DNA of 20,065 bases from Candidatus Heimdallarchaeota archaeon (GCA_030668825.1 DAOVET010000044.1:1-20065), one strand, 5' to 3'. Shown: positions 1,192 through 19,740, counted from the stretch's first letter. Numbers and translations are program-made. Notes: generated from the letters alone by a model not told the origin.

Positions 1192-1243
1192 CCAGTGGTT
1201 CCTCTATTGGTTTAAGCAATAGGACTAGAAGAGGAACCATTGG
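1192..1243 (+). repeat. Inverted repeat / long stem-loop upstream of tnpB
   Basis: CCAGTGGTTCCTCT (1192-1205) pairs with AGAGGAACCATTGG (1230-1243): 14 bp with one G-U. An inner CTATTG/CAATAG pairing is possible, and TTTTT follows. Confidence 0.8.
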
Positions 1244-1299
1244 TTTTTGATCATTCGATAATGGTTTCAGTGTTTATTAAACACTTACAATTTTAAGAG

Positions 1300-2868: not shown

Positions 2869-3040
2869 ATTCGATGGGCTTGGTCGAGAATCCGTCATCT
2901 ATTTAGATTCGACAGGTTCGGTAATGAGTGTCCATTAGCAAGAGATGAATCCTTTGAACAGATTAATAGCATAGTATGCCTCTGTTCCAAAAAACCAGCA
3001 CTGATACAATATGAATTGATTATCTTTTCATTTTGTACAG
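2869..3040 (+). ncRNA. Putative omegaRNA (reRNA) scaffold of the TnpB; may start within the ORF 3' end
   Basis: Several stems lie right after the stop: GTCGA/TCGAC (2883-2913), TCATCT/AGATGA (2895-2948), TAATG/CATTA (2922-2937) and GAACAGA/TCTGTTC (2956-2987). This position is typical for TnpB guide RNAs. Confidence 0.5.
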
Positions 3041-3540
3041 TTTTGCTACTACGGAGAATTCTGTTTCTTCAATATTACGCTGGTTTAGGATGAGTCTTGA
3101 GAGGACCTTCCTGAATACTGTAAAAGGTTTTTGGGGAGAGAATAACTCATGCAAAGTTCTTTCAACACATATCTCAATGCAATCTGTAGAACTTGAATCA
3201 TTACATTGCTTTCCTACATCTCCCCCCTTTTTTCCTTTTTTTCTTCAAATGTACTTATATCAATTGCTTGGCCTCCTTGAAAACCAGAAATAGCTTTTGG
3301 GAAAGAATAACTTCCGGGAGTCTTAAGGTCAAAAAAAGGATTATTATTTACTTTCCATCTTTTATTAAGTGGTTTTTGATTCAAGTAAAGTATCTCTAGA
3401 TTTGCTGAAGAGTAAGCATCGAATATGTGAGATTACTTATGATGCAGAAGCAATTGAAAAACCTTCATAATAATTACAATATTGCCAAACTTATACAGAT
3501 TCTCTGATAGTTATTCTCAAACATATTTATACAAACAAAA

Positions 3541-3978
3541 CTATTCATCCAGAATCCGCTTTGAAAAATCATAAATCAGCAAACTATCACATTCATAATT
3601 GGATACAAATTTCTCCGCTCGTTCTAACCACAAGGCTAGAAGATCCTTATCTACTTGTTTCATTGAAATTAATGTACTCAGTACTTTGCAGGGGAGTCTA
3701 GAAGTCAAAAGAGGATTATCATTAACCTCCCATGCAAGTGAATAATAACCTACAGCGAGGTCTAAATCATCTTTTACAGTGTGTAAATTTCCTAAATAGA
3801 AATAGGAGAGGGAAGAATGAGGTGAAGAGAGTGAAAGTTCCTGAAAAAACAATATCGCTGAATCAATGTCTCCTTCTTGAATCAAATCTAAACCTATGTT
3901 AATTAATGTCTGATATTCAAAATCAAATAGTGAAAAAAATTGTGTTTGTTTTGTTTCTTGTTTTTCGAGATTAAGCAT
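3541..3978 (-). CDS. Small tetratricopeptide-repeat (TPR)-like protein
   Basis: Helix pair LINIGLDLIQEGDIDSAILFFQE...SYFYLGNLHTVKDDLDLAVGYYSLAWEVN fits the TPR consensus. ATG 3978 is preferred over 4089 because TTTTATA lies about 35 nt upstream. Confidence 0.65.
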   Translation of the reverse strand: MLNLEKQETKQTQFFSLFDFEYQTLINIGLDLIQEGDIDSAILFFQELSLSSPHSSLSYFYLGNLHTVKDDLDLAVGYYSLAWEVNDNPLLTSRLPCKVLSTLISMKQVDKDLLALWLERAEKFVSNYECDSLLIYDFSKRILDE

Positions 3979-4263
3979 GATTACTTTCGACAAAGAGTCT
4001 AAAAGTTCAGTATAAAAACCCAAAGAATTTACGGCTATTTTTAGATTTAACAAATATAAGTGTTTCAATAAAGCTCTAGATAGATACAATAAATCCAGAA
4101 TATTTCATTCCTATTCATTTTGCAGAAGGGGCGGATTTAATGTTTCTAAATTATTATGGGACAACTATAGAAAATTGTGGTTGCGAAATTGTTCATCTAA
4201 ATTATTTTGAATCAATCAAATTCAAAATATAACAACCCAGAGAGCAGAACTAGAAAATTAAAT

Positions 4264-5259
4264 TCACTGCCCTTTTATATCTTTCAAATACCAGTTATAA
4301 GTTTCTGTTAAAGCTTCTTCGAATGTTTTCTTACTAGTAACACCCAGTATGCTTTCGATTTTCTCTGTATTCACTATTCTAGTCTTTCCCATCTGATTGA
4401 CTCTATATCTATCTAACAAAGGTTTTTTCTTGAAAAGTTTCCATTGTAGCTCTCCAAAGAAACCAATAAGCATAGCAATGTTATAATTTAGGTTGAAAGA
4501 ATTAAGCTTTGTTTTACATATTTTAGCAGCTGTTTCAAATAGTTCGCGTCTAGTAAGAATAAAACTAGTGTGATTAAATATTTCCCCTCTGGCTTTATCT
4601 ACTGCTTCCATTTTTATCAAAGCTTCAACAACATCTTCAACATAGCTATAAGAAAAAATCACTTTACCCTTGCTGATGAAAGGAATTTTTCTATTGCTCT
4701 CGATTAAATTAAATACTGTTGGAGCCCAGTGATCACCCGGGCCAAAAATGATAGGAGGCCTTAATGCTGATGCTTTAAATCCAAATTCCTCAGCAAACTT
4801 GAATACTTCTTGTTCCCCTAAATACTTACTTTCTCTGTATCCTGGAATCAAATCAACTCTAAAAGATTCATCTATTGGATAATCAGGGAATTTAAAGCCA
4901 TAAACACCTAAAGTAGACATATAGATGAATTTCTTTGAACCAGCTCTAATAAACTCATCAAGCAGATTCTTAGTTCCAATATGATTTATTCTGTAAAAAC
5001 TAGGCAATGGTGCAAGATCATCTACAACAGCTGCTAGATGAAAAACTGATTCAACGTCATCTAAACATCCTACTAAGCTTTCTTTCGAATCAAGATTCCC
5101 AAAGAATAACTCTATTTCATATTTATTTAATGTCTCACATTTCTCTTTTTCACTGGGAAGAACCAATGCTGATATTCTTTCGTCTGGGTATCTTTTCCTG
5201 ATTTCCTTCACTAAATTAGTACCTAGGAAACCAGTTATACCTGTAATGAGTATTGACAT
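4264..5259 (-). CDS. NAD-dependent epimerase/dehydratase (extended SDR, 3-beta-HSD-like)
   Basis: ITGITGFLG Rossmann motif, HLAA, YMSTLGVYG, catalytic YRESK and LRPPIIFGPGD. Confidence 0.92.
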   Translation of the reverse strand: MSILITGITGFLGTNLVKEIRKRYPDERISALVLPSEKEKCETLNKYEIELFFGNLDSKESLVGCLDDVESVFHLAAVVDDLAPLPSFYRINHIGTKNLLDEFIRAGSKKFIYMSTLGVYGFKFPDYPIDESFRVDLIPGYRESKYLGEQEVFKFAEEFGFKASALRPPIIFGPGDHWAPTVFNLIESNRKIPFISKGKVIFSYSYVEDVVEALIKMEAVDKARGEIFNHTSFILTRRELFETAAKICKTKLNSFNLNYNIAMLIGFFGELQWKLFKKKPLLDRYRVNQMGKTRIVNTEKIESILGVTSKKTFEEALTETYNWYLKDIKGQ

Positions 5260-5346
5260 GATAAATATTAGAATCGACTTTCAGATTAAAAATACTTCTA
5301 CTAACCAATCATTTTACATAAAAAGAGGAAAAAAAAGAAAAAAAGT

Positions 5347-6831
5347 TTATTCTTTCTTGAATATTTTTCGAAGGCCAATCACAATAAGACCTTTTTCTCT
5401 TCCAGATAGTTTCCTGTAATCAATCCATTCTACTTCATTTAATATTTTCTTGAAATTTAGTTTGTCTGGTTTCTCCTTAGTTGAAAGACTGCTTAATCTT
5501 TGGATCATCCACTCGAAGCTTAGAACGAAATTAAATCTAGCCCATATCCAAACAATAAGATCAAAGAATAGAACCGTAACGAAAGCGAGAAGCAGAACCC
5601 AGTATTCTCCACCTTGACCAAATTGACCACTTAATAAATTGACAGTTTTGAATGCCGGATTAAAGATAGCATATGGAACAAGATGGTAGATTTGTAAAAC
5701 GAAAATGGATAATGAGAGAACGCCCCAAATTCTGAAATATTTGACAATAATGTTATTTCCAAATTTCTGAGATTTTCCTCTAAATTCTACAAGCCAGAGA
5801 AGAAGAGTCATCAGTCCTACCTGACTAGCTAAAAGCATGAAGAAAAATGGAAATGTCGGACGTTCAAAATTGATGTCAAAGTGCATAAAAGTAGCAGTTA
5901 TACCTCCTATTACGCCCAGAATAATAGTTATGAGTAAACCCCATAGAGGTAATCTCTTAGGTGGTTTTTCCATTGCTAAAACAATACCGAAACCTACTCC
6001 AACAAGGGAAGTTATTAAATAGGGAAACAGAGGGTAGTAATCTCCAGTTAAAACCATCATTAAATACGTTCCAAAACTTGCATTTTCAACTTGCATATCC
6101 ATACTTGGCCACGTAAGGTGATATACATTTTCAGATGCGGATGCAGGAATAAGCCAGTTTATCTGTTCTGAAGCATACCATAAGAAAGGAGTAGTAACTG
6201 CTATAACAACAATTAACCCTAGAACAATGAACAAATTCCTTTTCACTTTCTTATATCCACCATTTCTATTTAAGAAGAAAAGAACAATAGCGATAATTAT
6301 CATAAGATAGCCTATTATTTGAAGAGCTTCCATACGGAAGATTTGAGTCCAAATCTTTGACACTATAGCTGAATCTGCCCAAGTAGAAGCTGTGAAAGGT
6401 TTTCCCGTCTTAATTAGACTTCCGAAATAGCCATAATAACCAAAAGATTCAGCTATAAAACCAGCAATAAGAATCCCAAAACCAGTCATAATCTGTTTAA
6501 GAAAGACTCTAGAAGTAGCATCACCACGAGAAACTCTTTTTACAAAAGAAACAGTATTGACTACTCCTGAAACAAGGATAAAGATACCAACCCAATTACC
6601 AAAAAATCCCGAAAAGAGGATAAAGATGGCAAAAAAGGGATTAGTAATTTGAAAAATATTTTCAATCCCTGCATCAAAAACCCAGCTGTAATCATACTTA
6701 TGATTGAAAACATGAAGGAAGACCATCATCCAAATAGCAAGACCTCTAAGGAAGTCAATAGAAGCAATACGCTTCATTCTTTTAGAAGAATTTACTTCTT
6801 CAGTTTTTAAATCTGTGCTCATCGCTACCAC
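5347..6831 (-). CDS. Multi-pass membrane acyltransferase-like protein (DUF1624/HGSNAT-like)
   Basis: RIASIDFLRGLAIWMMVFLH N-terminal signature, ALQIIG, YYPLFPY, GVLSLSIFVLQ and many hydrophobic helices. Confidence 0.8.
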   Translation of the reverse strand: MVAMSTDLKTEEVNSSKRMKRIASIDFLRGLAIWMMVFLHVFNHKYDYSWVFDAGIENIFQITNPFFAIFILFSGFFGNWVGIFILVSGVVNTVSFVKRVSRGDATSRVFLKQIMTGFGILIAGFIAESFGYYGYFGSLIKTGKPFTASTWADSAIVSKIWTQIFRMEALQIIGYLMIIIAIVLFFLNRNGGYKKVKRNLFIVLGLIVVIAVTTPFLWYASEQINWLIPASASENVYHLTWPSMDMQVENASFGTYLMMVLTGDYYPLFPYLITSLVGVGFGIVLAMEKPPKRLPLWGLLITIILGVIGGITATFMHFDINFERPTFPFFFMLLASQVGLMTLLLWLVEFRGKSQKFGNNIIVKYFRIWGVLSLSIFVLQIYHLVPYAIFNPAFKTVNLLSGQFGQGGEYWVLLLAFVTVLFFDLIVWIWARFNFVLSFEWMIQRLSSLSTKEKPDKLNFKKILNEVEWIDYRKLSGREKGLIVIGLRKIFKKE

Positions 6832-7107
6832 ATCAAGAATTATGGGAAAAAAAATAGTTCACAGCTATAAAAATCTAACCCGAAATAATTGAGATGTTGT
6901 TAAATATAGAAAACTCGCAAAAATATATTATTCTTTATTCCATAGTATCTTAAAATAACAAAAAATTATGCTAACTTGGCAGTAACTCGAAGAGATTAAC
7001 ATTTGTCTTTAACCCATTGCACCTTTTTTCAGGTTTTTAATTAACTGAAAAACTGCATATTTAAATGTGTTAATCAAGATTTATAATTGAACCATGAAGG
7101 ATGTAAA

Positions 7108-7797
7108 ATGAAATTAAAAGAAATAGTGATGAAAATTGCATTAATTTCAATCTCAGTTTGGGTTTATGTACCAATAATAGCAGGACTTATTACTCTAATG
7201 ATATGGGTAATACCGTTAGCTTATACCTCTTGGTTTCTTTTTCAATCTTTTGGACCATTTCGATGGATAGAAACAATTTATTCTATAGGTCTTCCTTTTG
7301 AAATTTTTATGTTTGTTTTTGAGACTATAGCTTTTATAGGTGGGCTGACTTTGGTTTTCTGGGGTTTCAGTCACATAGTGAAAGCTCGAAAAAATAATAT
7401 AAAAATAACTCAAACAGGTCCTTATAAATATATTCGTCATCCCCAAAACTTGGGAATTATTCTGATTTCATTCCCTTTTGCTTTAATGATTCCTGGTTAT
7501 GATCATGGGATAAGGGTAGGTGATGTTCTTTCGTGGGTTTTCTTCTGTTTTCTTCTTATTATCTGGTCTGATGTCGAAGAAAGAAAATTACAAAAAGAAC
7601 ATCCAGAAGAATTTGTAGAATATAAATCCAAAACTGGATACTTTTTTCCTAGAATTAGAGAAAAACAACCTTTAATAATTCAGAAAAAGAAATACTACTA
7701 CTTTATTCGTTATTTAAGCTTTATTTTTACCTATTGTATGATAGTTCTAATTGCGCTTCTTTTTACAAAGTATGTTCCAGGGCTTCTTGTTCGTTAA
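7108..7797 (+). CDS. Isoprenylcysteine carboxyl methyltransferase / PEMT-family membrane methyltransferase, copy 1
   Basis: TGPYKYIRHPQNLG and EERKL...EEFVEYKSKTGYFFP motifs. Start set at ATG 7108 by alignment with copy 2. Confidence 0.85.
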   Translation: MKLKEIVMKIALISISVWVYVPIIAGLITLMIWVIPLAYTSWFLFQSFGPFRWIETIYSIGLPFEIFMFVFETIAFIGGLTLVFWGFSHIVKARKNNIKITQTGPYKYIRHPQNLGIILISFPFALMIPGYDHGIRVGDVLSWVFFCFLLIIWSDVEERKLQKEHPEEFVEYKSKTGYFFPRIREKQPLIIQKKKYYYFIRYLSFIFTYCMIVLIALLFTKYVPGLLVR

Positions 7798-7819
7798 ATG
7801 AAAATATGAAGGATGTAAA

Positions 7820-8539
7820 ATGAAATTAAAAGAAATAGTAAAAAAAATCGCTTTAATTTCAATCTCACTTTGGGTTTATGTACCAATAATAGCTGGACTT
7901 ATTACTCAAATGTTATACATGATACCTTTAGCTTATACCTCTTGGGTTCTTTTTCTATCTTTAGGCTACGCTAGTTGGGCAGATTTGATTTATATCTTTG
8001 GTCTTGGGGGGAAATATCTTCCTCTTGGAATTTTTTTATTCGTTTTTGAGTGTATTATATTTGTTGTTGGGTTGACTCTGTTTTTCTGGGGTTTCATTCA
8101 TATAGTACGAGTCAGAAAAAACGATATCAATATAGCTCAAACAGGTCCTTACAATTACATTCGTCATCCACAACACTTGGGAATCATTCTCATATCACTT
8201 CCTTTTGCTTTATGGATAATCCCTAGGTTTGATTCAGGAATCTTGATAAGTATCCGTATAGGTGATATTCTTTCGTGGGTTTTATTCTGTTTTGTTCTTA
8301 TTATCTGGTCTGATGTCGAAGAAAGAAAATTGCAAAAAACATATCCAGAAGAGTTTGCAACTTATAAAACCAGAACCGGGTTCTTCTTCCCAAAAATAAG
8401 AAATCAAAAAACACTGAAAATTCAAAAGAAAAAATATTATTATCTTATTCGCTATCTAAGCTTTTTCCTCATTTATTGTATAGTAGCATTAATTATGTAC
8501 TTAATTACAAGGTATATTCCTGGAAGTGTTTCTCGATAA
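7820..8539 (+). CDS. Isoprenylcysteine carboxyl methyltransferase / PEMT-family membrane methyltransferase, copy 2
   Basis: TGPYNYIRHPQHLG and EERKL...YKTRTGFFFP motifs. Tandem paralogue sharing the upstream ATGAAGGATGTAAA. Confidence 0.85.
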   Translation: MKLKEIVKKIALISISLWVYVPIIAGLITQMLYMIPLAYTSWVLFLSLGYASWADLIYIFGLGGKYLPLGIFLFVFECIIFVVGLTLFFWGFIHIVRVRKNDINIAQTGPYNYIRHPQHLGIILISLPFALWIIPRFDSGILISIRIGDILSWVLFCFVLIIWSDVEERKLQKTYPEEFATYKTRTGFFFPKIRNQKTLKIQKKKYYYLIRYLSFFLIYCIVALIMYLITRYIPGSVSR

Positions 8540-8626
8540 AAAAGTGAAATTTAGCTTAGTCTAGAATAAAAGATGAGTGAAATATATATTCCAAAACTGG
8601 AGTTTCTAAAAAATAAAAAGCAGGGT

Positions 8627-8866
8627 TTAATTTAACCCTATAATGTCTCCATCTTCAGTGTAATCCATTCTGTTAGCAGCTGGAACAGGAGGTAATCCAG
8701 GCAGCGAGAACATGCTACTACAGATAGGAACGTTGAGACGAGCACCAGTGTATAAAAGGACCTCGTCCACGTTTAGAGTCCAATCAATAGGAGCACCCAT
8801 TAAACCTACTTTGTCAGTGAGACTTAATTGGGTTTTAGCCATACACATTGGGAAGTCAGCAAAACC
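8627..8866 (-). pseudogene. fhs: Orphan 3' fragment of fhs (last 79 codons plus stop), remnant R1
   Basis: Collinear with 16863-17102 (GFADFPMCMAKTQ...DYTEDGDIIGLN*). By hand alignment, 26 codons differ synonymously and 9 non-synonymously. Similarity extends about 35 nt past the stop, to about 8591. Confidence 0.95.
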
Positions 8867-8964
8867 AGCGTGAAATGCATCCTCAGTAGCATTATACCTT
8901 AACTCAACTGCTATATTTATGTTTATAAAATAGAAAAAGAATAGAATAAGTGTAAGATGATAAA

Positions 8965-9954
8965 ATGAGAAAAATTATTTCTTGCATCGTGTTTGTTGTT
9001 TTACTGGTAGGGGTGATGTTTTCTCAAATAGTAGGTTCAAATGTCAGTGATGAAGTGGATCCTAATAATCACAATTATCCTGTCTATAATCTAATTAATC
9101 TAGCTTTGAACAATCAAACAAGTACCAATCTCTCTGCACAAATTATGATTTTCAATCAAACTACCCAAGAATGGGAACTCAACCAACAACTGATTGAAGT
9201 AATAGAACAAGATATGCAAACACTTGCAACAACCATTGAAAAACTTTCAGAGATCTACCTATATTCTTTAAATACTTCGTTTTCACCTGGTTCCCTTAAC
9301 TTTCTGCTAGTTACAAAGATTAATCTTGCTCAAAATGCTGTAACAACTATTCTTTCTGCTATCTCTTCTGACACTGAAAAGTGGTGGTATGTAAAGCATG
9401 CTTCTTATCCAATTATAGATTTAAGTGAAATTGCTGTTGAAGGAAGTTTCAAATATAATGTAATAGATGCGATGGATATACAGACAGGTTATTATATTTA
9501 CTTTGAAAATGGTTCTGAATCTTTTGTTTGTAGAGAACAGAATGGGCTCTCTGCTTCCCTTTGGCTATTCAATGGAACAGATTGGGTGCCTAATGTAGCT
9601 TTTCGTCAATTATTAGAAACTGATCTTCTAGGATTAAAACAAAGGATAACAGAAATTAAAGACCTTGAAGCGCGTTATCTCCATCCTACATTTAATCGAG
9701 ATCCAGAAAAAATTTACTATAAAAATATTTTTACCTTTGCGGTTGGAATTAATTATACAAAATGTTTAGGTACTGAAAAACAATTGAAAACCTTTTTCTT
9801 GCTTTATAGTGCCTTAGAACAGTTTTGGTATGTAGAAAGGATTCTCTATATAAGAATCGAGAAAACTGTAAATATCTCTTGGTTCTCTCTATTATCAATT
9901 TTTGTTCTTCCTATTCTGCTTTTATATAAACGAAAGAGAAATCACATCGAGTAA
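8965..9954 (+). CDS. Hypothetical secreted protein with C-terminal membrane anchor
   Basis: N-terminal signal peptide, several N-x-S/T sequons, and a C-terminal hydrophobic helix followed by KRKR. Confidence 0.75.
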   Translation: MRKIISCIVFVVLLVGVMFSQIVGSNVSDEVDPNNHNYPVYNLINLALNNQTSTNLSAQIMIFNQTTQEWELNQQLIEVIEQDMQTLATTIEKLSEIYLYSLNTSFSPGSLNFLLVTKINLAQNAVTTILSAISSDTEKWWYVKHASYPIIDLSEIAVEGSFKYNVIDAMDIQTGYYIYFENGSESFVCREQNGLSASLWLFNGTDWVPNVAFRQLLETDLLGLKQRITEIKDLEARYLHPTFNRDPEKIYYKNIFTFAVGINYTKCLGTEKQLKTFFLLYSALEQFWYVERILYIRIEKTVNISWFSLLSIFVLPILLLYKRKRNHIE

Positions 9955-10166
9955 CAATGACAGTTTCTTGATGAAAATAATAACTGGAAGAATATAGAAC
10001 TAGGAATTGCGGGAAGATATTCTCACCAACCAGAGACTATATATCAAGATATTAGTGAGATGAATATAATTCCTAGCCACAATAATCTTTTTCATTGCTA
10101 TGTAAACGATCAATAAATTTTCTTCCCACAATACTTATAATTTCATAATAACTAGCTTTGCTTTAA

Positions 10167-12467
10167 GTGAAAAAAAAAATGAAAAAGAAACTAGTATTGG
10201 GAATCATAGTTATTGTGGTTATACTTTCAACAAGTATATTCAGAATACAACCAATCTTTGCTTCTAATTACACATACCAATTAACTAATCCTGCGATTAG
10301 GTCCTTAGTTCCACTAGATCCTATAGTAATTGTTAATGATGATAATTTCACAGATTATGGTTTTCTTGGATCTGGAACTTCAGAAGAACCATATTTAATT
10401 GAAAATTATGAAATTATTACTTCTAGTGACACAGGTATTTATATTACTGGTACAACAAAACACTTTGTTATTCGCAACTGTTATGTTCATGCATATTGGG
10501 ATGGTATAGTTATTGAATATGCAGCTGAAGGAACAGTTTCTATTTCTAATACTACTTGCAGTAACAATAGAGGGGATGGAATTAGAGTATTCTATTCAAA
10601 TAATGCAACCCTGACTAATAACATTTGCAACAATAACTACTATTGGAGAAGTAAAGGTATCTCATTATCCCATTCTTCAGGATCTACAGTTATAAATAAT
10701 ACTTGTAATATTAACTATTATTACGGTATTTTTGTACGCTATTCACCTGAAACCGTTTTAATAAACAATACTTGTCAAGCTAATCATTGGGGTATTTTTC
10801 TAGAATACTCCTTTGGAGCTTCTATAATTAATAGCATTTTTACGAATAACTATTATGTTGGTATAAGTATAATGGATTCATCAGAAATTATTGTGACCAA
10901 TAATAATTGCAGCAATAATGGGTATACTGGTTTAGCAATAACTAGTTCACCAGAAGCTGTGATAATCAATAATGTATGTAATAACAATTATTTATCACAC
11001 GGTCTTTCTATGTACTATTCAGCTAGAGCGACACTGATTAACAACACTTGCAATAACAATAAATATCAGGGTATCTTTATATCTGGTTCAGCAGGATCGA
11101 CTTTAATCAACAATACTATACAGAATAATGGTTTTTATGTCTCAGAAGATTCTATTGAATCTTACCTAAATTATACTTTAGAGAACAACTTGGTAAATGG
11201 TAAGAAAATAGGTTTTTATATCAATCAAGATGGATTGATTTTATCAGAACCAGGCTATGCACAATATATTCTGATTAATTGCTCAGAAGTAGTGATATGT
11301 AACCAAGAATTAACTAATACTGCTTCTAGTATAGATCTTAAATGGTGTGACAATGCGACAATAATCAATAATACATGCAATGACAATGATTATGAGAGCA
11401 TTAATGTAGAAAATTCCACAAATGTTATGCTGATTAATAATATTTGTAATAGTAATAGAGATGGCATTTCTGTATCTTTTTCTTTCGAGATTATTCTGGA
11501 AAACAATACGTGCAACTACAATTCCCATGATGGAATTTCTGTTGAATATACTACAGATGTAATGTTGCAAAACAACACATGCTTCAATAATGAGCGGGAT
11601 GGTTTTCATATATTACTTTCTGATGATGCATGGATATTGAACAATACGTGCAATGATAATCTAGATGAGAATATTCATGTGCTAGCTTGTCCAGGAGTTG
11701 TATTGGAAAATAATGTATGTAATGGAATTTATTTGCGTTTTTCACCTAATGCTACACTAACAAACAATTTTTGTTATGACAATGATTGGGGGATTAGGGT
11801 AGAGCTTTCTTCTTATATAGTTTTAATAGACAATATATGCCAAAATAACTATTTTGGAGGAATCCGCCTATATCATTCTTCATGGGCGACACTAACAAAA
11901 AACGTTTGCAACAATAATGATGATGGTATTTTAGTTCAAGGTTCATCATTTGTTACACTGACAGATAATACTTGTAATGAAAATAATTATGTAGGTATTT
12001 ATTTAGTAGGTGGGTCAAGTTCGTTAATTTCTAATAACACATGCAAATACAACAACTGGGGAATCGGATTGAGTAATTCAGTTTCTTGTCTAATAACATA
12101 CAACCTTCTGAAAGAAAATGAAGAATATGGTATTGCTATAGAATCTGGTTCCGATGGAAACACCATACACCATAATATTTTCATATCTAATAATCTTGGA
12201 GGTACTTCTTATGCTTATGGAGGTACTTCTCAAGCATACGATATGGGAACCAACAACACCTGGTATGAAGAAGAAACCAAAGAAGGCAATTTCTGGTCTG
12301 ATTGGGATAAGAAGAAACCTTATCCTATAGATGGTAGTGTTGAATCCACAGATCTTTACCCATTGAATGAAAACATGGAAAGGATAAACTATAGCTCTGT
12401 AATATTAATATCTTCAATTATGTTATTATCAGTTGTTGGAACATATATGAGACGAAAAAAAGTTTAA
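10167..12467 (+). CDS. Right-handed parallel beta-helix repeat (NosD/CASH-like) cell-surface protein
   Basis: Signal peptide, many approximately 22-aa repeats GI.L..S....L.NN.C..N, the GNFWSD...PYPIDG...DLYPL end motif, and a C-terminal TM helix plus RRKK. Start may be ATG 10179. Confidence 0.92.
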   Translation: MKKKMKKKLVLGIIVIVVILSTSIFRIQPIFASNYTYQLTNPAIRSLVPLDPIVIVNDDNFTDYGFLGSGTSEEPYLIENYEIITSSDTGIYITGTTKHFVIRNCYVHAYWDGIVIEYAAEGTVSISNTTCSNNRGDGIRVFYSNNATLTNNICNNNYYWRSKGISLSHSSGSTVINNTCNINYYYGIFVRYSPETVLINNTCQANHWGIFLEYSFGASIINSIFTNNYYVGISIMDSSEIIVTNNNCSNNGYTGLAITSSPEAVIINNVCNNNYLSHGLSMYYSARATLINNTCNNNKYQGIFISGSAGSTLINNTIQNNGFYVSEDSIESYLNYTLENNLVNGKKIGFYINQDGLILSEPGYAQYILINCSEVVICNQELTNTASSIDLKWCDNATIINNTCNDNDYESINVENSTNVMLINNICNSNRDGISVSFSFEIILENNTCNYNSHDGISVEYTTDVMLQNNTCFNNERDGFHILLSDDAWILNNTCNDNLDENIHVLACPGVVLENNVCNGIYLRFSPNATLTNNFCYDNDWGIRVELSSYIVLIDNICQNNYFGGIRLYHSSWATLTKNVCNNNDDGILVQGSSFVTLTDNTCNENNYVGIYLVGGSSSLISNNTCKYNNWGIGLSNSVSCLITYNLLKENEEYGIAIESGSDGNTIHHNIFISNNLGGTSYAYGGTSQAYDMGTNNTWYEEETKEGNFWSDWDKKKPYPIDGSVESTDLYPLNENMERINYSSVILISSIMLLSVVGTYMRRKKV

Positions 12468-12715
12468 AAAATGAAGAAGTGAAAAATTAGAAATCCCAAC
12501 GATATAGCTTCTTCTTTTCATATTTCTCGTTTTAAATTTATCCAAATTTTTTACTCGATTTTTTGTTTTAACTTTTAATAGTTCAGCTAACCCTCCAATT
12601 TAACTTAAATAAGAAAAATGATAACTTCTAGCAAGTACTTATATAAAACCAATCAAACAAGTACTACGATTCTTCTTGGAAGAATCTAACTTAATGTAGC
12701 GAAGTGGAATTATTA

Positions 12716-14035
12716 ATGAAATTAAGTAAAAACAAGAAGATAACTTTACTAATTATCTTCTCATTAGGAATAATCGCTTTAACTCAAACTCCTCAAACAT
12801 ATGCGTTTTTTGGAGGAAAAGTTAGCGGAAAAGTAACCTATAATGGAAGTGGTTTAAGCAATGCTTTGGTCACTTTATTAATAGATGGAAATGTTGAAGA
12901 TACTTACTACACATCCAGTACAGGATTTTATTCTGTACGTACAGATGACCTGTTACGGGATACTATACCAGTAGAGATAAAAGTAGAAAAAAATGGTTAT
13001 ACAACCATTTACAGAGAGACGTATCTATATCCATGGGTACCAACAACCTTGAATATAGAATATTTAGTAAATTTAAGATGTAAAGGATATGTCTATGATC
13101 ATACAGGAACCGCCTTATCTAGTGCAACTGTAAAACTAATCAAAGTAAGCGGAGGAGCAGTGTTGAAAACTGTTACAACTAACAGCAATGGATATTATGA
13201 CTTTACAAAAAGTGTTATGGAAAACCTTCATTGTAAACTTCAAGTCTCAAAAACAGGATATGAAACTAAATTTATAGAGCTTTATGCGAGTGGTCAAACG
13301 ACTACAGCAAATTTCTATATAGCTTTGACAAGTGCTGAAAGAATTGCTGCTTTCTTTGTATGCACTACTGCAGCACAGTTTGGTTCGGATTATGAAACAT
13401 CGCCCTATGTAGATGGATACATATCTCAGCTAATAAGTGAAGAGGGATTTGATGACTATCGGGAATACTATGATGAAGCAGATTGGGAAGATGCAATTGC
13501 TGAAATTGATACACTGGAAGATGAGGATACATTTGTATTTATTTACATTTTTGCACATGGTAGATCTTATGGTCCAACAACCCAACATACAATAGTTGAA
13601 ATAGCCCCGGATGTAGATATGTATTCAGAAGATTTTGCTGTGGAAATAGCTAAACTGGAATCAAATAATATCATGTTATTAGCAGAAGCATGTATGAGTG
13701 AAGGTTTTGTAAATGATCTTGAAGGGACAGGAGTTTTTGTAATATCAACTGCAAAATTGGATCAATTTGCATACATGGAATGGTATGAAGATGGATATGA
13801 TCCTGATGGACCCCCCCATGAATCATATTTTCCTGGAATGGAAGGGATTTTTTCTAGGTTCTTCTTCGAGTCAATTCATCTATGTAATAGCGACTACACT
13901 GCTTTTCTTTATGCAAGAAATTCAGCTATAGATTATTATTGGGATTATATAGATGGCAACCCTGGAGATATGGGAGGACCACCTGTAGCACAATGTAGTG
14001 ATCAGTGCGTTTACACATGGTTTGAAACTTGGTAA
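12716..14035 (+). CDS. Secreted protein with two carboxypeptidase-regulatory-like beta-sandwich domains and a C-terminal clan CD (caspase/legumain-like) peptidase domain
   Basis: Signal peptide. Two repeats of the type G.V.....LS.A.V.L......T.S.G.Y...V.K.GY.T. FIYIFAHG and LLAEACMSEGF match the His-Gly...Ala-Cys dyad of clan CD. Confidence 0.75.
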   Translation: MKLSKNKKITLLIIFSLGIIALTQTPQTYAFFGGKVSGKVTYNGSGLSNALVTLLIDGNVEDTYYTSSTGFYSVRTDDLLRDTIPVEIKVEKNGYTTIYRETYLYPWVPTTLNIEYLVNLRCKGYVYDHTGTALSSATVKLIKVSGGAVLKTVTTNSNGYYDFTKSVMENLHCKLQVSKTGYETKFIELYASGQTTTANFYIALTSAERIAAFFVCTTAAQFGSDYETSPYVDGYISQLISEEGFDDYREYYDEADWEDAIAEIDTLEDEDTFVFIYIFAHGRSYGPTTQHTIVEIAPDVDMYSEDFAVEIAKLESNNIMLLAEACMSEGFVNDLEGTGVFVISTAKLDQFAYMEWYEDGYDPDGPPHESYFPGMEGIFSRFFFESIHLCNSDYTAFLYARNSAIDYYWDYIDGNPGDMGGPPVAQCSDQCVYTWFETW

Positions 14036-14253
14036 TGATTATTAAATTACCATTTTTTTTTCTAGAAACTAGAGATTTTTTTCCCTTTTCTGAACCAATT
14101 CAAAAATAGGTGAAAAACAGGAAAATGAACTGAAAGAGTGTAATAGCTTTAAGAGCAACAAAAGGAAATTTCAAAGACATAATAGATTTCAATCTCTCTT
14201 ATAAATATATAAGGTATTTACAATTGAAAAAAATGAAAATAATAAAAGTAGGG

Positions 14254-14298
14254 TTAATTCGACCCCATAATTTCTCCATCTTCTGTATAGTCCATTTT
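14254..14298 (-). repeat. Short orphan fhs 3' end, remnant R2
   Basis: Encodes KMDYTEDGEIMGSN* versus RMDYTEDGDIIGLN* in fhs. The flank AATAATAAAAGTAGGG (about 14238-14253) matches the flank of the intact gene. Confidence 0.9.
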
Positions 14299-14390
14299 AT
14301 AACTTGTCAGGGCTCAAATCCCTGCAACTTTTGTCCAAAACTTACATATTTATAGGAATTTTAAGTTGTTAGAATTAGAGGTATTATATT

Positions 14391-14729
14391 ATGAAGAAAT
14401 TTTTAGTAACATATCATGCCCCTGTTTCTTTTCATGAGAAGATGAGAAATGCAACTCCTGAAGTGCATCAAAAAATGATACAAGCTTGGATGAGTTGGGC
14501 ACAAGAAAATAAAAGCAATCTTGTTGACTTTGGAACACCATTAGCTAATGGAAAATCTTTGTCAAAGGATGGTACTTCACCTGGTAACAAAGAGTTAAGC
14601 GGATATTTCATCTTTCAAGCAGAAAGTATTGATGAAGCTGTAATCTTATTAAAAAATCATCCTCACTTGTTATCAGATGATTCATGCACATTGGAAATAC
14701 ATGAACTCATGCCTTTACCGAACATGTAA
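14391..14729 (+). CDS. YciI/DGPF-family dimeric alpha-beta barrel protein
   Basis: W.SW......LVDFGTPL...ELSGYFIFQAESIDEAV.LLKNHPH......LEIHE pattern. GAGGT RBS upstream. Confidence 0.85.
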   Translation: MKKFLVTYHAPVSFHEKMRNATPEVHQKMIQAWMSWAQENKSNLVDFGTPLANGKSLSKDGTSPGNKELSGYFIFQAESIDEAVILLKNHPHLLSDDSCTLEIHELMPLPNM

Positions 14730-14860
14730 AGCTTGTACCATCCGTACTAGTAAGTTGTAATGTTAATGATTGTTTAAATCACAAAAAGAGATAATTCCTT
14801 TCTTCAATTTAATTATATTCAAAAGCAAAAAGTAATTGTTAAAAAGAAAAGAAAATAGGA

Positions 14861-14913
14861 CTAGTTTAACCCTATGATTTCTCCATCTTCAGTATAGTCC
14901 ATTTTGTTAGCAG
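14861..14913 (-). repeat. Short orphan fhs 3' end, remnant R3
   Basis: Encodes ANKMDYTEDGEIIGLN* (TAG stop), collinear with 16863-16915. Confidence 0.92.
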
Positions 14914-14986
14914 ATTATGTTGGTCACAGAATAACACAACAAGATTTGAAAATGTTAAGCCAGGAATTTTGAAATAATTGAAATTA

Positions 14987-16675
14987 CTAACTTGACACTA
15001 TAGTTGTTGTATAAGGAACAAAAACGACAGAGAAGTAAATTTCTGCATATCTTTTTGCGAAAACAAAAGTAATTTGTTCTCCTACTGTAAATGTCTGGTT
15101 TATACTCCCAATAATTTCAAAATTTCCGTACCCTATAATAATAATTGAACGACCATTGTGAGGACTACCAATATACGTTGTAATTGTATCAGATGAATTG
15201 AATATTGAAATGTTATTTATAGGATAATATGAATCATAGAAGGAATTGTTATCCGTATCAATCACTAACGAAGTAATGAAAATAAAAGAACCTTGAGCTT
15301 CAAGAGGAACATTAGAAAAATTTATGGCGACAGAAACCTTAAAATTAAATGTTCCGTTTGATAAGAAATTTGCTTCGGTAATCAAACATTCTCTTTCTAT
15401 TTGCATATCTAACCCAATTTTGGATTCTAAGGAGTAGAAATCACTTAAATCAACAAACAATGGTAGTGCAAAAAACGAGGAACAAAGAATCAAGGTTAAG
15501 AGAAAATAATTAGCAATTTGTATCGATAATTTTTTAGAAAAATTCCTTTTTGCAGAAACTTCATTTAACCTATCATGAGAGTTTATGTGCCGTTTATCTT
15601 TTTTCTTCAATTTTCGAATATATTTGAGAGCTAGAATTGTGATAAAAAATAATAAAAAGGGTTCAAACTCTACTTGAAATAATTTAACAAGAATTTCAAA
15701 ATTAAGATTACCCTCTAGAAGAAATAATGATCCGTAGAAAAAATAAAATAACCAAAGAATCACACCGATAGAGAGAAAAAGTAGAAATTTCTTCTTTGAA
15801 TATTTAAAATCCTCTTTTCTAGAAAAGTGAAATGGCTCTTTGATATTATTGAACAGTATGAAAAATAATAAAATAAATGCAAAAGAAGAAAAAACATAAT
15901 ACGCGGATAAAACAGGTTGACTATTGGTTTTCTTGTTTAGTGCAAATAGATAAGAGAAAATAACCATATTTCCATCACCTGATATAAACAAAGTAACAGG
16001 CATGAGTATCACATAATATTTAATCACATCAACAGATTCTTTGCTAAAAGGGATTTGGTTATTATCCCTATTCATAAATGATTTGGTTGGAATAAACAAT
16101 AGGAACAAACCCTGAAAAAGCAAGAGCAGCGCTACTATAAATATTAATAATAGATAAGTTCTGGAAAAAATCACTTCAATAGAATATATAGCTTCACTAG
16201 CAGGAAGTGCGTTCCAAAGACTTATCACACTGAATTTCAACGATGTACCGGTTATTAATAGATGTATAATGGTTCTAACCGCCAAATATATTGAAGTTAA
16301 GCCAGTTTTTCTAGGAAAGAATCTGCTGAAAACCAAATTGAGGAGAAAAATTATCAAAAATAATTCAAAAAAAAGTGCTACAGGAAGATTTTTTGCTAAA
16401 AGTATCATGTCAGCTCCTCTAACGAGGAAAGCGCTTGAATTTGTTGCAATTTGTGAAGCATCTAGTAAAAATGAATTTGTTGTCACATGTAAAATCTTTA
16501 TCTGGGTAAGCATTATAGTGAAGGAGAAAATTATAATATTAATACATAAAAAAATAGTATTAGTAACTTTGTTCTCAAAAATTACTAAAAACTTAATTTT
16601 TTCGTTTTTGAAGAACTTACTCATTTTCATATTTCTTTCAATTTCTGAATAATAAACATTTTCAATAAAGGACAA
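14987..16675 (-). CDS. Hypothetical polytopic membrane protein with C-terminal beta-rich extracellular domain
   Basis: 562-aa ORF, very AT-rich, about 9-10 hydrophobic segments, then a soluble domain with N-x-S/T sequons. Start uncertain, possibly at the internal MKMSK. Confidence 0.7.
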   Translation of the reverse strand: MSFIENVYYSEIERNMKMSKFFKNEKIKFLVIFENKVTNTIFLCINIIIFSFTIMLTQIKILHVTTNSFLLDASQIATNSSAFLVRGADMILLAKNLPVALFFELFLIIFLLNLVFSRFFPRKTGLTSIYLAVRTIIHLLITGTSLKFSVISLWNALPASEAIYSIEVIFSRTYLLLIFIVALLLLFQGLFLLFIPTKSFMNRDNNQIPFSKESVDVIKYYVILMPVTLFISGDGNMVIFSYLFALNKKTNSQPVLSAYYVFSSFAFILLFFILFNNIKEPFHFSRKEDFKYSKKKFLLFLSIGVILWLFYFFYGSLFLLEGNLNFEILVKLFQVEFEPFLLFFITILALKYIRKLKKKDKRHINSHDRLNEVSAKRNFSKKLSIQIANYFLLTLILCSSFFALPLFVDLSDFYSLESKIGLDMQIERECLITEANFLSNGTFNFKVSVAINFSNVPLEAQGSFIFITSLVIDTDNNSFYDSYYPINNISIFNSSDTITTYIGSPHNGRSIIIIGYGNFEIIGSINQTFTVGEQITFVFAKRYAEIYFSVVFVPYTTTIVSS

Positions 16676-16731
16676 TTATATACTCAATTATTAACATATT
16701 ACTCTCAAAGAAATCACTCAACGAGCTAGAT

Positions 16732-16860
16732 ATGTCCAATATTACTCAAATAGAAGAATTCAGAGAAGTTGTCAGAAATATTCGTCAAACCTACAATCTC
16801 TTTCCTTTGGAAGACGCCAAAGAACTGGAATTTCTAGAAAAAAGAAATAATAAAAAGTAG
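16732..16860 (+). pseudogene. Small ORF or 3' tail of a lost gene convergent with fhs
   Basis: MSNITQIEEFREVVRNIRQTYNLFPLEDAKELEFLEKRNNKK*. The frame is open from 16669 and stops 2 nt from the fhs stop. A similar tail (KLEFLKNKK) lies next to remnant R1 at 8594-8620. Confidence 0.45.
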
Positions 16861-16876
16861 GGTTAGTTTAACCCTA
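16858..16876. repeat. Inverted repeat spanning the fhs stop codon
   Basis: TAGGGTTA-GTT-TAACCCTA is a perfect 8-bp stem, followed on the minus strand by T-rich sequence (terminator-like). Confidence 0.6.
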
Positions 16877-18566
16877 TAATATCCCCATCTTCAGTATAGT
16901 CCATTCTATTAGCAGCTGGAACAGGGGGTAAACCAGGCAACAAGAACATGCTACCACAGACAGGAACGATGAAACGAGCACCAGTGTACAATCTTACTTC
17001 ATCAACATTAAGAGTCCAGTCAGTAGGAGCGCCCATTAAGCCAATTTTATCGGTTATACTGAGCTGAGTTTTAGCCATACACATTGGAAAGTCAGCAAAG
17101 CCTAGAGCTTCGATAACTTTGATGTCTTGTTCAGCTTGGGGAGAATACTCAACATCTTTAGCACCATAAATCTTGGTAGCGATTTTTTCAATCTTGGTTT
17201 TAATAGAATCAGAAAACTCATAAGCGAATTTGACATCACCAGAACCTTTTTCGATGGCAGCAAGAACAGCTTCAGCGAGGTCGAGACCACCTTCACCACC
17301 CTTTATGAAAACTTCACTGACAGCAGCGGTGACGCCGAGAGATTGGCATTTGTCTTTGATCCATTGAATCTCTTCATCAGAATCAAAGGGGAAGCGGTTA
17401 ATGGCGACGACAGGAGGAATGTTGAAGATGTTGAGCATGTTGTCGAGGTGTTTTTCGACATTCTCGAAGCCTTTGGCTAATTCATCCATATGGAGGTTTT
17501 TAGCTTCATCTAAATCTTTGATACCACCGTGAAGTTTGAGAGCTCTTGCAGTAACAACGAGAACAACAGCATTGGGGAGAGTGTCGTATTGGCGAGCGAC
17601 AATGTCGACGAATTTTTCGAAACCGAGATCAGCAGCGAAACCGCCTTCGGTGATAGTGTAGTCAGCGAGTTTGAGAGCGAGCTTGGTGCCGATGATGCTA
17701 GAATTGCCGTGGGCCACATTTGCGAAGGGACCTCCGTGTATGAATCCTGGTACTCCTTCAAAGTTTTGTACTAGGTTTGGTTTTATTGCATCTTTCAGTA
17801 TTAGTGTCATTGCTCCTACTGCTTCTATATCCTTAGCGAATACTGGCTTATCATCATAAGTATATCCTAATAGAATACTCCCTAATCTTTCTTTCAGTTC
17901 TCTCACATCAGCTGCTAGAGCTAAAATAGCCATGATTTCTGAAGCTGCTGTAATCACAAAGCCTGTGTTTCGGATGTCACCACCCATTCTTCTTCCACCA
18001 ATTCCAGTAATAATATCTCTTAATGCTCTATCATTCATATCCATTGCTCTTGGCCATGTTACTTTTGTTGGATCAATGTTACACTTATTTCCTTTTGTTA
18101 AGTGATTGTCAAGCAAAGCTGCGAGTAAATTATGTGCTGAAGTAATTGCATGTATATCTCCTGTAAAATGCAGATTTATGTCCCACATAGGAAAGACTTG
18201 TGAGTATCCTCCTCCTGTAGCTCCTCCTTTTATTCCAAAAGTTGGACCCATTGAAGGTTCTCTTAAAGCGAACATGACTTTCTTGCCCATCTTTTGCATT
18301 GCTTGTGATAGACCTATCGTAGTTACTGTCTTTCCTTCTCCTGCTCTTGATGCAGTCATAGCTGTTACGAAAATTAATTTGCCATCTGGTTTGTCAGAAT
18401 TAAGTATTTTAAGCATGGTTTGGTAATTTATCTTAGCAACATGCTTTCCAAATTGCTCTAGGTCATCTTCTTCTAGACCTACTTTTGCAGCAATTTCTCT
18501 AATGTTTTTCATATCTTTTGCTTTTTCTTGAGCAATTTCAATGTCTTTCTTCATTATAATCATCAT
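16863..18566 (-). CDS. fhs: Formate--tetrahydrofolate ligase
   Basis: GEGKTVTTIGL, LREPSMGPTFGIKGGATGGGYSQV, INLHFTGDIHAITSAHNLL, HGGPFANVAHGNSS, TEGGFAADLGFEKF and CMAKTQLS. Confidence 0.98.
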   Translation of the reverse strand: MMIIMKKDIEIAQEKAKDMKNIREIAAKVGLEEDDLEQFGKHVAKINYQTMLKILNSDKPDGKLIFVTAMTASRAGEGKTVTTIGLSQAMQKMGKKVMFALREPSMGPTFGIKGGATGGGYSQVFPMWDINLHFTGDIHAITSAHNLLAALLDNHLTKGNKCNIDPTKVTWPRAMDMNDRALRDIITGIGGRRMGGDIRNTGFVITAASEIMAILALAADVRELKERLGSILLGYTYDDKPVFAKDIEAVGAMTLILKDAIKPNLVQNFEGVPGFIHGGPFANVAHGNSSIIGTKLALKLADYTITEGGFAADLGFEKFVDIVARQYDTLPNAVVLVVTARALKLHGGIKDLDEAKNLHMDELAKGFENVEKHLDNMLNIFNIPPVVAINRFPFDSDEEIQWIKDKCQSLGVTAAVSEVFIKGGEGGLDLAEAVLAAIEKGSGDVKFAYEFSDSIKTKIEKIATKIYGAKDVEYSPQAEQDIKVIEALGFADFPMCMAKTQLSITDKIGLMGAPTDWTLNVDEVRLYTGARFIVPVCGSMFLLPGLPPVPAANRMDYTEDGDIIGLN

Positions 18567-18771
18567 CTAAGATTGTTAGTTGAACCCTCTTTCTGAGTTT
18601 CAGTTAAAAAATATTTGCATATTCAGATAAATTACATTACTCACTATTATTACAGTAAGACTGATTTTTTACTACCTCTCTTCTGTTAGAATGTTGTCAA
18701 ATAGATACGTTCTAAAATGTCCAAATCCTTTGAAACTTAGAAGTCAAAATCATAGAGTAGTGTATAGTTTA

Positions 18772-19740
18772 ATGAGATGCGAACACCCACAATGTAATGT
18801 TGATGCAGACATACTTTTCTACTGTAGATTCTGCAGAGGTTCATTCTGCCAAAACCACAGAAATTCGCAAGATCACAACTGTCCTTCAGTAAATCAAAGA
18901 ACAGGTACAGCTCCTGGTGCACCCCAAAGTTCTGTTACCCCTGCTGAAGCTATGCGAAGATTTGCCCATAGTGTCTCTCAAGCTGCACAACAATCTCAAC
19001 AAGCTCAACATTCTCAAGAGTCACAACCTGCACCTAAGTATTTTGCAGATGAAAAAAGTCAGAAAAAGTTCATAGTACAACGTCTTACTGAATCTGGACA
19101 GCTTTTTACATTGGGTAATGAAGTTTTGGACATTCTTTTCGGCTTTGCTCTAATAGTGCTTGTTTTCGGTCTCTTTCAATATTTTGCTGGTTCTACAGGT
19201 ATTTGGTGGTGGGGATTTGTAGTTTCCTTTGCTTTAGTTGGCACTGCTTTTCTACCTCATGAACTAGCTCATAAGTTTGTTGCTATAAGAAAAGGTCAAT
19301 ATGCTAGATACATCCTTTGGGTAAGGGGGTTGATGTTTACTCTATTAACATTGGTAATCGGAATAGGTCTAATCGTTCCTGGTTTTGTCGCTATTGTTCC
19401 GATGAGTAGACAAATGAATAAAAGGGATTTAGGGTTAGTTGCTTTTGCTGGACCTTTTACAAATGCGATAATAGGATTTGTTAGCTTGATTTTTGGATTC
19501 TTAACTCATTATGGTGCTATAGCTTTACCTCCTCTCTTAGCAAGTCCTAATATCTTTATCCTAGTTGCTCAGTTTAACGGTTTAATTGCGCTCTTCAATT
19601 GCATACCAGTCTGGCAACTTGATGGTAAGAAAATATTGAATTGGAGTAAAGTTGCATATTTTGCACTAATCGCTGCTAATCTGGCATTAGTCATACCTGC
19701 ATTCATAATTAATCCCTCTTTTCTTTCGGGGGGTTCATAA
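18772..19740 (+). CDS. AN1-type zinc finger fused to site-2 protease (peptidase M50)
   Basis: CEHPQC...FYCRFCRGSFCQNHR...HNC (AN1), a Gln/Ser-rich linker, then HELAH, AGPFTN and FNCIPVWQLDG. Start probably ATG 18772 (track gives 18691). Confidence 0.9.
   Translation: MRCEHPQCNVDADILFYCRFCRGSFCQNHRNSQDHNCPSVNQRTGTAPGAPQSSVTPAEAMRRFAHSVSQAAQQSQQAQHSQESQPAPKYFADEKSQKKFIVQRLTESGQLFTLGNEVLDILFGFALIVLVFGLFQYFAGSTGIWWWGFVVSFALVGTAFLPHELAHKFVAIRKGQYARYILWVRGLMFTLLTLVIGIGLIVPGFVAIVPMSRQMNKRDLGLVAFAGPFTNAIIGFVSLIFGFLTHYGAIALPPLLASPNIFILVAQFNGLIALFNCIPVWQLDGKKILNWSKVAYFALIAANLALVIPAFIINPSFLSGGS

Follow-up and report, generated by a model that had tools for sequence, protein, structure and literature searches.

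Orphan fhs ends and cargo genes in the window

The window analyzed here is the entire contig C27 (20,065 bp) of G000, a metagenome-assembled genome (MAG) of Candidatus Heimdallarchaeota (2.76 Mb in 138 contigs, 90.6% complete, 4.67% contamination, 33% G+C), and it contains an array in which orphan 3' ends of fhs, the gene for formate--tetrahydrofolate ligase, stand between unrelated cargo genes. The anchor of the array is the resident fhs (pos. 16863-18566, minus strand), an intact open reading frame (ORF) of 567 aa (PF01268, E 1.1e-236). The closest public fhs loci are those of Candidatus Heimdallarchaeota MAGs (88-93% protein identity), and the locus of Ca. Heimdallarchaeum endolithica PR6 shows 74% protein identity.

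A repeat search of the window revealed three orphan ends, R1, R2 and R3, all direct to fhs on the minus strand. Repeat family D4 has four copies (8609-8679, 14236-14306, 14843-14913 and 16845-16915), and family D2 pairs 8609-8866 with 16845-17102 (258 nt, 81% identity). When the whole of G000 was searched with the 323-nt fhs end, the resident gene (E 2.8e-167) was followed by R1 (8608-8866, E 4.7e-73, 83% identity), a fifth copy on another contig (G000:C116:53110-53220, 111 nt, 89% identity, E 5e-36), R3 (14841-14913, E 4.9e-16) and R2 (14229-14300, E 1.1e-14), and the next match was at chance level (E 0.034). Both searches confirm the four same-orientation copies of the fhs terminus reported in the original prediction. 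R3 consists of fhs nt 1652 to the end plus the terminator, R2 of nt 1658 to the end plus the terminator, and R1 of nt 1465 to the end plus ~22 nt of aligned post-stop sequence, in frame; by eye, the likeness of R1 to the fhs post-stop sequence reaches ~45 nt, and its ratio of nonsynonymous to synonymous divergence (dN/dS) against the resident gene is 0.06. The remnants had been taken to end at the stop codon, but the copies run 20-45 nt beyond it, through a hairpin and a T-run.

The oldest remnant is a 49-nt internal piece of fhs (gene nt ~1193-1241; 6979-7027, minus strand; repeat family D12), the counterpart of which measures ~160 nt in the sister genome, G013. The array therefore extends past R1 and encloses two tandem paralogous membrane proteins (7087-8539, plus strand; weak ICMT/DUF1295/PEMT matches) that lie between R1 and the internal piece. 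These paralogues (7087-7797 and 7820-8539) share 76-81% DNA identity, and only the second has a counterpart, at 97%, on contig G013:C61.

The cargo that adjoins fhs is a 562-aa polytopic membrane protein of no family with ~9 hydrophobic segments (14987-16675, minus strand), 96% identical in the sister genome. Beyond it, all on the plus strand, are a YciI-like protein (14391-14729), which is missing between the homologous genes on the sister genome's contig, a 443-aa protein that matches CarboxypepD_reg and, weakly, peptidase C13 (12704-14035), a 766-aa right-handed beta-helix (NosD-like) protein (10167-12467), and a 329-aa protein of no family (8965-9954), the last three each with a hydrophobic N-terminus. 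This cargo is as originally described: a membrane protein, YciI and three secreted proteins. The beta-helix family recurs beside fhs ends in G001, G013 and G020, and a paralogue of the 329-aa protein sits in the C116 module together with the fifth orphan. NCBIfam gave no informative match for ten module proteins that are family-less or weakly matched.

The 3' limit of the sequence common to all copies is a hairpin across the fhs stop codon with its T-run (16838-16875, minus strand). The hairpin reads AGGGTTA-GTT-TAACCCT on the plus strand (16859-16875), followed by the T-run, and inspection by eye revealed that its pairing survives base changes, with AGGATTA/TAATCCT in the G001_f2 copy and a G-T pair in G005; in G020, it has a larger loop. 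Because G-T pairs are tolerated and a T-run lies behind it, the hairpin resembles an RNA 3'-end structure. Archaeal termination is not known to need more than T-tracts, which makes a hairpin spanning the stop codon odd for archaea. The hairpin matched no Rfam family. The window contains no tRNA genes and no Rfam families; thus a tRNA or known RNA is not the target. A hairpin likewise spans the stop codon of an M20 peptidase gene (C22) of this genome.

Contiguity of the array in independent assemblies

The locus was compared with contigs from four runs of four other studies, and at least 90% of its sampled words were present in the runs of several studies. Contigs of these other studies match the locus with 0-2 differences and span every critical joint. 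The 5' boundary of R1 is bridged by X6 record 27 (8302-8917) and X12 record 2 (8128-8917), R2 by X6 record 29 (11385-14296) and X14 record 19, and R3 with its neighbours by X6 record 30 (14271-16443), X12 record 7 and X14 record 20; the joint between fhs and its first cargo gene is bridged by X6 record 31 (16527-17279), and a boundary within fhs at nt 840, described below, by X12 record 8 and X14 record 22. Since independent public assemblies bridge the junctions, the array is no chimera. An artefact of assembly or binning, with contigs chimeric between co-occurring strains, could be suspected from the 138 contigs and 4.67% contamination of G000 and from several relatives' fhs contigs that end at repeat boundaries; given that contigs of four studies cross all these joints and that independent MAGs also hold arrays, of differing sequence, we regard it as extremely improbable. 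The chimeric assembly by which the original prediction could have been refuted thus fails as an account of the locus.

One X6 contig has a loose end at 16838, which represents a co-occurring variant with other DNA right behind the fhs terminator. Joints indicative of deletions or circles between the repeats were not found in the contigs of the four runs, a result of little weight, since contigs lose rare variants.

Arrays of fhs ends in related genomes

A DNA search covered G000, a further 24 species genomes from its genus and 16 genomes from other families. Of these 24 relatives, 19 matched the fhs end; the 16 from other families gave no match, which carries little weight because diverged copies are invisible to a DNA search. 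Orphans with non-fhs upstream flanks were identified by tblastn and blastn in at least seven of the 25 genus genomes (G000, G001, G007, G008, G012, G013 and G020), and G015 and G016 probably carry fhs orphans as well. Across the genus, the shortest orphan measures 45 nt and the longest 864 nt, the copies are 75-89% identical, and their 5' boundaries lie near fhs nt 838-841, 1133, ~1345, 1465, 1496, 1581-1615 and 1652-1658. The cargo of the relatives varies, comprising a solute-binding protein, an amidohydrolase, GNAT, a P-type ATPase with a TRASH regulator, and beta-lactamase-fold, ABC ATPase, caspase-like, MarR, PNPOx and beta-helix proteins. Modules thus differ within the genus in number and cargo, the polymorphism that had been proposed as a check.

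The flanks of the arrays are conserved, with the zf-AN1 and peptidase M50 gene (18691-19740, plus strand in the window) and its neighbours upstream, syntenic across the genus, and a common gene set downstream, represented in the window by three minus-strand genes (3541-6831: acyltransferase-like 5347-6831, 4264-5259 and 3541-4089) that are syntenic in G012, G009 and partly G013. In G005, the conserved flank lies directly behind fhs, so that this genome represents an empty site. Compared with G005, G008 has one solute-binding-protein gene and one orphan extra, and the sequence behind its orphan is the sequence behind fhs in G005. Outside the genus, no fhs orphans were present within 10 kb downstream in loci L056 and L057, and G041 (PR6, deposited as a complete genome) and G042 have one fhs 3' half each. 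Short FTHFS proteins starting near residue 281 gave 876 matches, mostly marked as partial or located on short contigs and uninformative on orphans in other taxa.

Comparison with the sister genome G013 revealed that its membrane-protein gene (96%) and beta-helix gene (93%) closely resemble those of G000, and that between them lies only a 570-nt orphan reaching from nt 1133 to the gene end, where G000 contains R3, YciI, R2 and the 443-aa gene instead. The two genomes therefore differ in the middle of the array, away from fhs, and the order of modules is no simple chronology. R3 begins with the same 16 nt as the G013 orphan, continues with ~48 unalignable nt and resumes at nt 1652; because start and end are kept around the gap, R3 is an internally deleted derivative of the 570-nt orphan. 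The position of R1 is occupied in the sister by an 860-nt orphan starting at nt 841 (G013:C61), and the R1 breakpoint probably stems from a later deletion. R1 and this positional counterpart are 79% identical, whereas the adjacent gene is 97% identical, and thus the orphans themselves are recombination substrates. The same two comparisons do not bear out the proposed chronological array with the newest module beside fhs. The variable breakpoints that had been put forward hold in that at least seven boundaries exist, but that of R3 reflects secondary deletion, that of R1 probably does, and one boundary, at nt 838-841, recurs.

On contig G020:C22 (L043:6359-15559), a unit consisting of fhs nt 841 to the end, a beta-helix gene and a caspase-like gene occurs ~3 times at ~80% identity. 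One orphan of this contig is frameshifted near residue 440.

Origin of the orphan alleles and mosaic structure of the resident gene

Eleven orphans could be placed in register. All of them keep the reading frame without a stop codon, and their comparison with the resident gene gave a synonymous divergence (dS) of 0.42-2.68, values near or above 1 being saturated, and dN/dS of 0.03-0.26. The low dN/dS indicates that the divergence arose within working genes, not in local duplicates decaying in situ. Several orphans resemble the fhs of another species more than their own: G012_f1 is 92.0% identical to G013 fhs vs 83.7% to its own, G013_f1 92.5% to G012 and 93.2% to G018 vs 80.9% to its own, and G008_f1 92.3% to G022 vs 87.0% to its own. 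On this evidence, the orphan ends derive from functional fhs alleles of other lineages.

The resident fhs is itself a mosaic. G000 and G013 are 97-100% identical at nt 1-839 of the gene, 71-88% at nt 840-1699, and 97-98% again past this patch (nt 1700-1871), including 166 nt after the stop codon. The patch corresponds to 16868-17727 (minus strand) of the window. The proposal that repeated insertions each displaced an fhs end thus gains support from the empty site, the foreign orphan alleles and the chimeric resident gene.

These data also bear on local tandem duplication from inside fhs into the downstream genes, followed by divergence and gene loss. The repeated unit of G020, in which homology continues ~220 nt past the stop codon into the next gene, is what such duplication would leave. 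However, the modules of the window are mutually unrelated, with no paralogues behind the orphans, the orphans resemble the fhs of other species more closely than they do the resident gene, and the empty sites (fhs in G008/G005, and those at ABCE1 and the C116 hydrolase gene described below) join the gene straight to the orphan flank. Duplication is thus contradicted for the window, paralogues behind orphans being found only in G020, and as a general explanation it is very unlikely.

The same arrangement at other genes

An automated self-comparison screen of G000 kept those repeat pairs that combine a copy over the end of an ORF (200 aa or longer) with a second copy outside any comparable ORF. 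This screen, applied to G000 alone, revealed 12 direct and no inverted gene-end orphan pairs. In addition to fhs, 3'-end orphans are present at genes for an M20 peptidase, an ABC transporter, GDPD, a radical SAM protein and ABCE1, and in all six genes of the 3'-end type, fhs included, the intact gene has its orphan downstream. One more candidate, behind a second M20 peptidase gene (C39), failed the screen. The cargo at the other loci includes peptidases, PAP2, patatin, TetR, YbjQ and large unknown proteins, without any recombinase. No common sequence motif was seen in the 3' ends of seven target genes. The search for similar 3'-end stacks that had been suggested thus yielded five further genes in G000, and the same result speaks against a dedicated, integron-like platform at fhs.

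At ABCE1, the 8.3-kb cargo is absent in four of five relatives (G013, G009, G001 and G005), and G012 carries a different insert of ~1 kb with an orphan. Two allele types, alpha and beta, are distinguished at this gene. The C116 hydrolase module, inside which the fifth fhs orphan lies, is bounded by a second copy of the hydrolase gene's 5' end and is absent in three of five relatives (G013, G012 and G009). At these two loci with empty sites, the two copies are 76-78% alike (hydrolase, 76%). Since the insertion post-dates the split from the sister and the copies are nevertheless only this similar, one copy must have been imported. For the C116 hydrolase, the orphan is 87% and the full-gene copy 77% identical to the single copy of the sister. 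At the ABC transporter, G013 has the same arrangement, and G007 and G008 have orphans of other lengths.

Recombinase searches

No match to the tyrosine recombinase family PF00589 was found in G000. Among the 25 genus genomes, 13 have any PF00589 match, none of which lies on a contig with an fhs array (six frames, stops read through), and 23 have matches to the serine recombinase family PF00239 (resolvase-type genes of ~250 aa), again none on an array contig. The 27 proteins of the fhs locus included no recombinase by Pfam, nor did the 10 family-less or weakly matched ones by NCBIfam. The absence of an integrase from the array is therefore borne out by G000 and by the array contigs of the 25 genomes. 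The broader claim that the window lacks any recombinase stands for integrases but not for a TnpB-like insertion sequence (IS) gene at 1300-2868, outside the array.

PF00589 was wholly unmatched, even by Xer-type proteins, in 12 of the 25 genus genomes, G000 among them, whereas all 14 control genomes matched; these 12 genomes are 72-92% complete, so that absence is unproven. A PF00239 gene (C29:24670-25113; region G000:C29:24400-25137, L128:6401-7138) adjoins the ABC-transporter orphan. It has relatives at 64-69%, with 1-7 per genus genome, and may be an IS607-like transposase.

Decayed tandem site-specific elements, in which a tyrosine or serine recombinase or a casposase carried the gene end in its attP and the integrases were lost or left unbinned, would produce the topology known from tandem islands at tRNA genes or in the 3'-distal part of protein genes; mobile elements tend to be missing from MAGs, and the recurrence of the boundary at fhs nt 838-841 would also agree with such an origin. 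Nevertheless, the array contigs of all 25 genomes lack PF00589 and PF00239, and 12 genomes are without a tyrosine recombinase match altogether. The repeats measure 45-864 nt and are 75-89% identical, whereas archaeal attachment (att) sites are given as 8-69 bp and matching in the excerpted text of PMC6563490. At least seven different boundaries in fhs leave no fixed crossover, at least six unrelated genes are targeted at ends without a common motif, and the C116 hydrolase, with its duplicated 5' end, is at odds with such elements. An origin from such elements is therefore unlikely.

A recurrent boundary within fhs

A boundary at nt 838-841 of fhs, immediately ahead of the FANIAHG codons, is present in G012, on G013:C61, twice on G020:C22 and on G020:C69. 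These orphans represent four unrelated flank contexts, only the two G020:C22 copies having related flanks, and a contig break in G016 coincides with the same position. If joints were random over ~900 nt, the chance of three further joints in the same 4 nt would be roughly 1e-7 by our own estimate. An island of nucleotide identity was considered as the cause of the nt 840 boundary and rejected, since the DNA there varies at wobble positions.

The recurrence bears most directly on the idea that a dedicated, unseen agent seeds the fhs events, which would make fhs a true capture platform and the other loci by-products. Such an agent might be a nuclease breaking fhs at nt 840/841 or an unbinned family of episomes with an arm of fhs nt 841 to the end. 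The four unrelated flank contexts with the G016 contig break, the start of the resident mosaic patch at nt 840, the variation of the DNA at this site and the 24 TnpB-like nuclease genes in the genome are all in keeping with it. However, no module contains a nuclease or replication gene, the remaining boundaries are scattered (1133, ~1345, 1465, 1496, 1581-1615 and 1652-1658), and gene conversion by an existing nt-841 orphan would alone give the patch edge at nt 840; furthermore, PR6 (G041) and G042 hold a single fhs 3' half. On balance, we think a dedicated agent improbable.

Proposed end displacement by host recombination

The arrays have probably arisen by homology-anchored, integrase-free end displacement through host recombination, a process not specific to fhs. 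DNA of a related lineage, bearing the 3' part of fhs and its trailing genes, would recombine with the resident fhs via homology; the far end would join without homology, or a circularised fragment would enter by a single crossover (Campbell-type). The product would be an intact chimeric fhs, followed by the cargo and, in direct orientation, by the displaced 3' end on the older downstream DNA. Their remaining homology to fhs would let the orphans receive further insertions and exchange sequence with the resident gene by gene conversion, with deletions eroding them later. An nt-841 orphan serving as conversion template would account for the patch at nt 840-1699. The topology and polarity of the arrays, their polymorphism, the foreign orphan alleles, the mosaicism of the resident fhs, the lack of recombinases on array contigs and the other loci with their empty sites are shown by the data. 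We infer the molecular route, whether one-ended homologous plus illegitimate recombination or Campbell-type integration, and likewise the mode of DNA entry.

Several points weigh against end displacement by host recombination. The ABCE1 orphan is 80.6% and the resident end 90.3% identical to the single copy of the sister, so that the direction of displacement is not uniform between the C116 hydrolase and ABCE1; with the orphan less sister-like, a Campbell-type crossover or later exchange fits ABCE1 better than displacement of the native end. The recurrent boundary at nt 838-841 is unexpected for random joints and gives a hint of a shared element or of a site-specific break. Values of dS near or above 1 are saturated, and several of the orphans fall below 100 nt. 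All genomes are MAGs of 63-94% completeness, and mobile elements bearing integrases are often left unbinned. No donor sequence was identified with which microhomology at the illegitimate joints could be compared.

Taken together, the data suggest gene gain driven by host recombination behind fhs and other genes. A wider proposal, which we advance as speculative and rather doubtful, is that gene gain in the Heimdall group occurs mainly by integrase-free end displacement at many conserved genes, leaving datable orphans, with fhs seeded site-specifically at nt 840/841, by a targeted break or by an episome with an fhs homology arm, and its orphans forming an allele reservoir; fhs would then be a true capture platform that works without a recombinase.

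Comparison with known systems

An integron combines the integrase IntI, an attI site and an attC hairpin in each cassette, and it holds an ordered cargo array at one site. The fhs locus likewise presents an ordered array of promoterless-looking cargo units. In contrast to an integron, it has no IntI, attI or attC, pieces of a housekeeping gene delimit its units, and insertion also takes place away from the head of the array. Arrays formed by C-terminal displacement were reportedly treated by Jackson et al. in 2009.

The closest likeness in form is shared with the bacterial orphan arrays of rhs, cdiA and type VI secretion system (T6SS) genes, which arise by C-terminal displacement and are proposed to form through homology-facilitated illegitimate recombination (Kirchberger et al. 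2017, PMC5361080, as excerpted). Common to both are an intact gene followed by displaced 3' ends in the same orientation that keep some conserved sequence, the arrival of a new end with its downstream genes by horizontal transfer, orphans that match other strains, mosaicism and the lack of an integrase. The rhs/T6SS arrays differ in that they are bacterial and keep variable toxin domains with immunity genes, with selection acting on toxin-immunity pairs, whereas the ends displaced here are interchangeable ends of housekeeping genes (fhs, ABCE1, transporters) with unrelated accessory cargo in an Asgard host, at several genes across the genome and including a 5'-end case.

Homology-facilitated illegitimate recombination was described in transformable bacteria (de Vries and Wackernagel, Prudhomme et al., and Meier and Wackernagel, cited in PMC5361080; also PMC3240628; as excerpted). 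As presented in these excerpts, it resembles the process proposed here in its single homologous anchor and the lack of a site-specific enzyme, and it predicts a chimeric anchor and variable joints. It differs in that the excerpted sources concern bacterial laboratory experiments, in which the events are rare and usually accompanied by deletions, and no archaeal demonstration was found in them. The ABCE1 case fits single-crossover (Campbell-type) insertion better than this route.

In the tycheposons of Prochlorococcus, partial tRNAs separate stacked islands (Hackl et al., 10.1101/2020.12.28.424599, as excerpted). There, too, modules are stacked at a conserved gene with partial copies between them, newer modules push older ones outward, and most are without an active element; the tyrosine recombinases, ~40-nt att sites in tRNA or tmRNA genes and integrase fragments that the excerpt describes for tycheposons were not seen here. 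In Thaumarchaeota, 14 of 68 integrated elements lie within protein genes, in their 3'-distal parts (Krupovic et al. 2019, PMC6563490, as excerpted). These share with the present loci an archaeal host, a target at the 3' end of a protein gene and empty sites in relatives, but, according to the same excerpt, they have integrases or casposases, and their att sites or target duplications are short (median 17 bp).

The main text of PMC8813620, on mobile elements of Heimdallarchaeum, makes no mention of formate or direct repeats, and that of PMC11529989, on Atabeyarchaeia, mentions no direct repeats, attachment sites or homologous recombination. No case of archaeal C-terminal displacement or orphan arrays was present among the matches listed, which extend to main texts and not to supplements. 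End displacement at archaeal housekeeping genes, as read from these genomes, thus appears to have no earlier archaeal description that we could find.

The uptake of foreign genes by Asgard archaea is an open question for the origin of eukaryotic gene content, and few Asgard mobile elements are known. Orphan ends would be footprints of single gene-gain events without mobile-element machinery, recording the site, the polarity and the donor lineage, and gene flow within an uncultured archaeal genus could be traced from them using genomes alone. Core metabolic and translation genes such as fhs and ABCE1 are on this evidence mosaic, their ends swapped together with cargo, which affects marker phylogenies and fhs-based surveys of acetogen-like metabolism. 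If the hot spot at nt 840/841 is a targeted break, it would represent a new kind of capture site.

Other repeats and mobile elements

The TnpB-like gene outside the array (1300-2868) encodes a 522-aa protein with a Cas12f1-like TNB domain (E 2e-15) and belongs to a multi-copy IS. The element spans ~967-3164 and has many copies of 65-88% identity in G012 and G013; PF07282, the TnpB-like family, has 24 matches in G000. Elsewhere in this genome, G000:C20:93561-100176 contains large tandem or overlapping direct repeats of 2-4.4 kb (76-84%) over ORFs of 728 and 739 aa. An element of ~85 nt at the end of contig G000:C127 (L131:11501-11585) has copies of 85-95% identity on dozens of contigs in G005, G012, G013 and G001, and may be a repeat resembling a miniature inverted-repeat transposable element.

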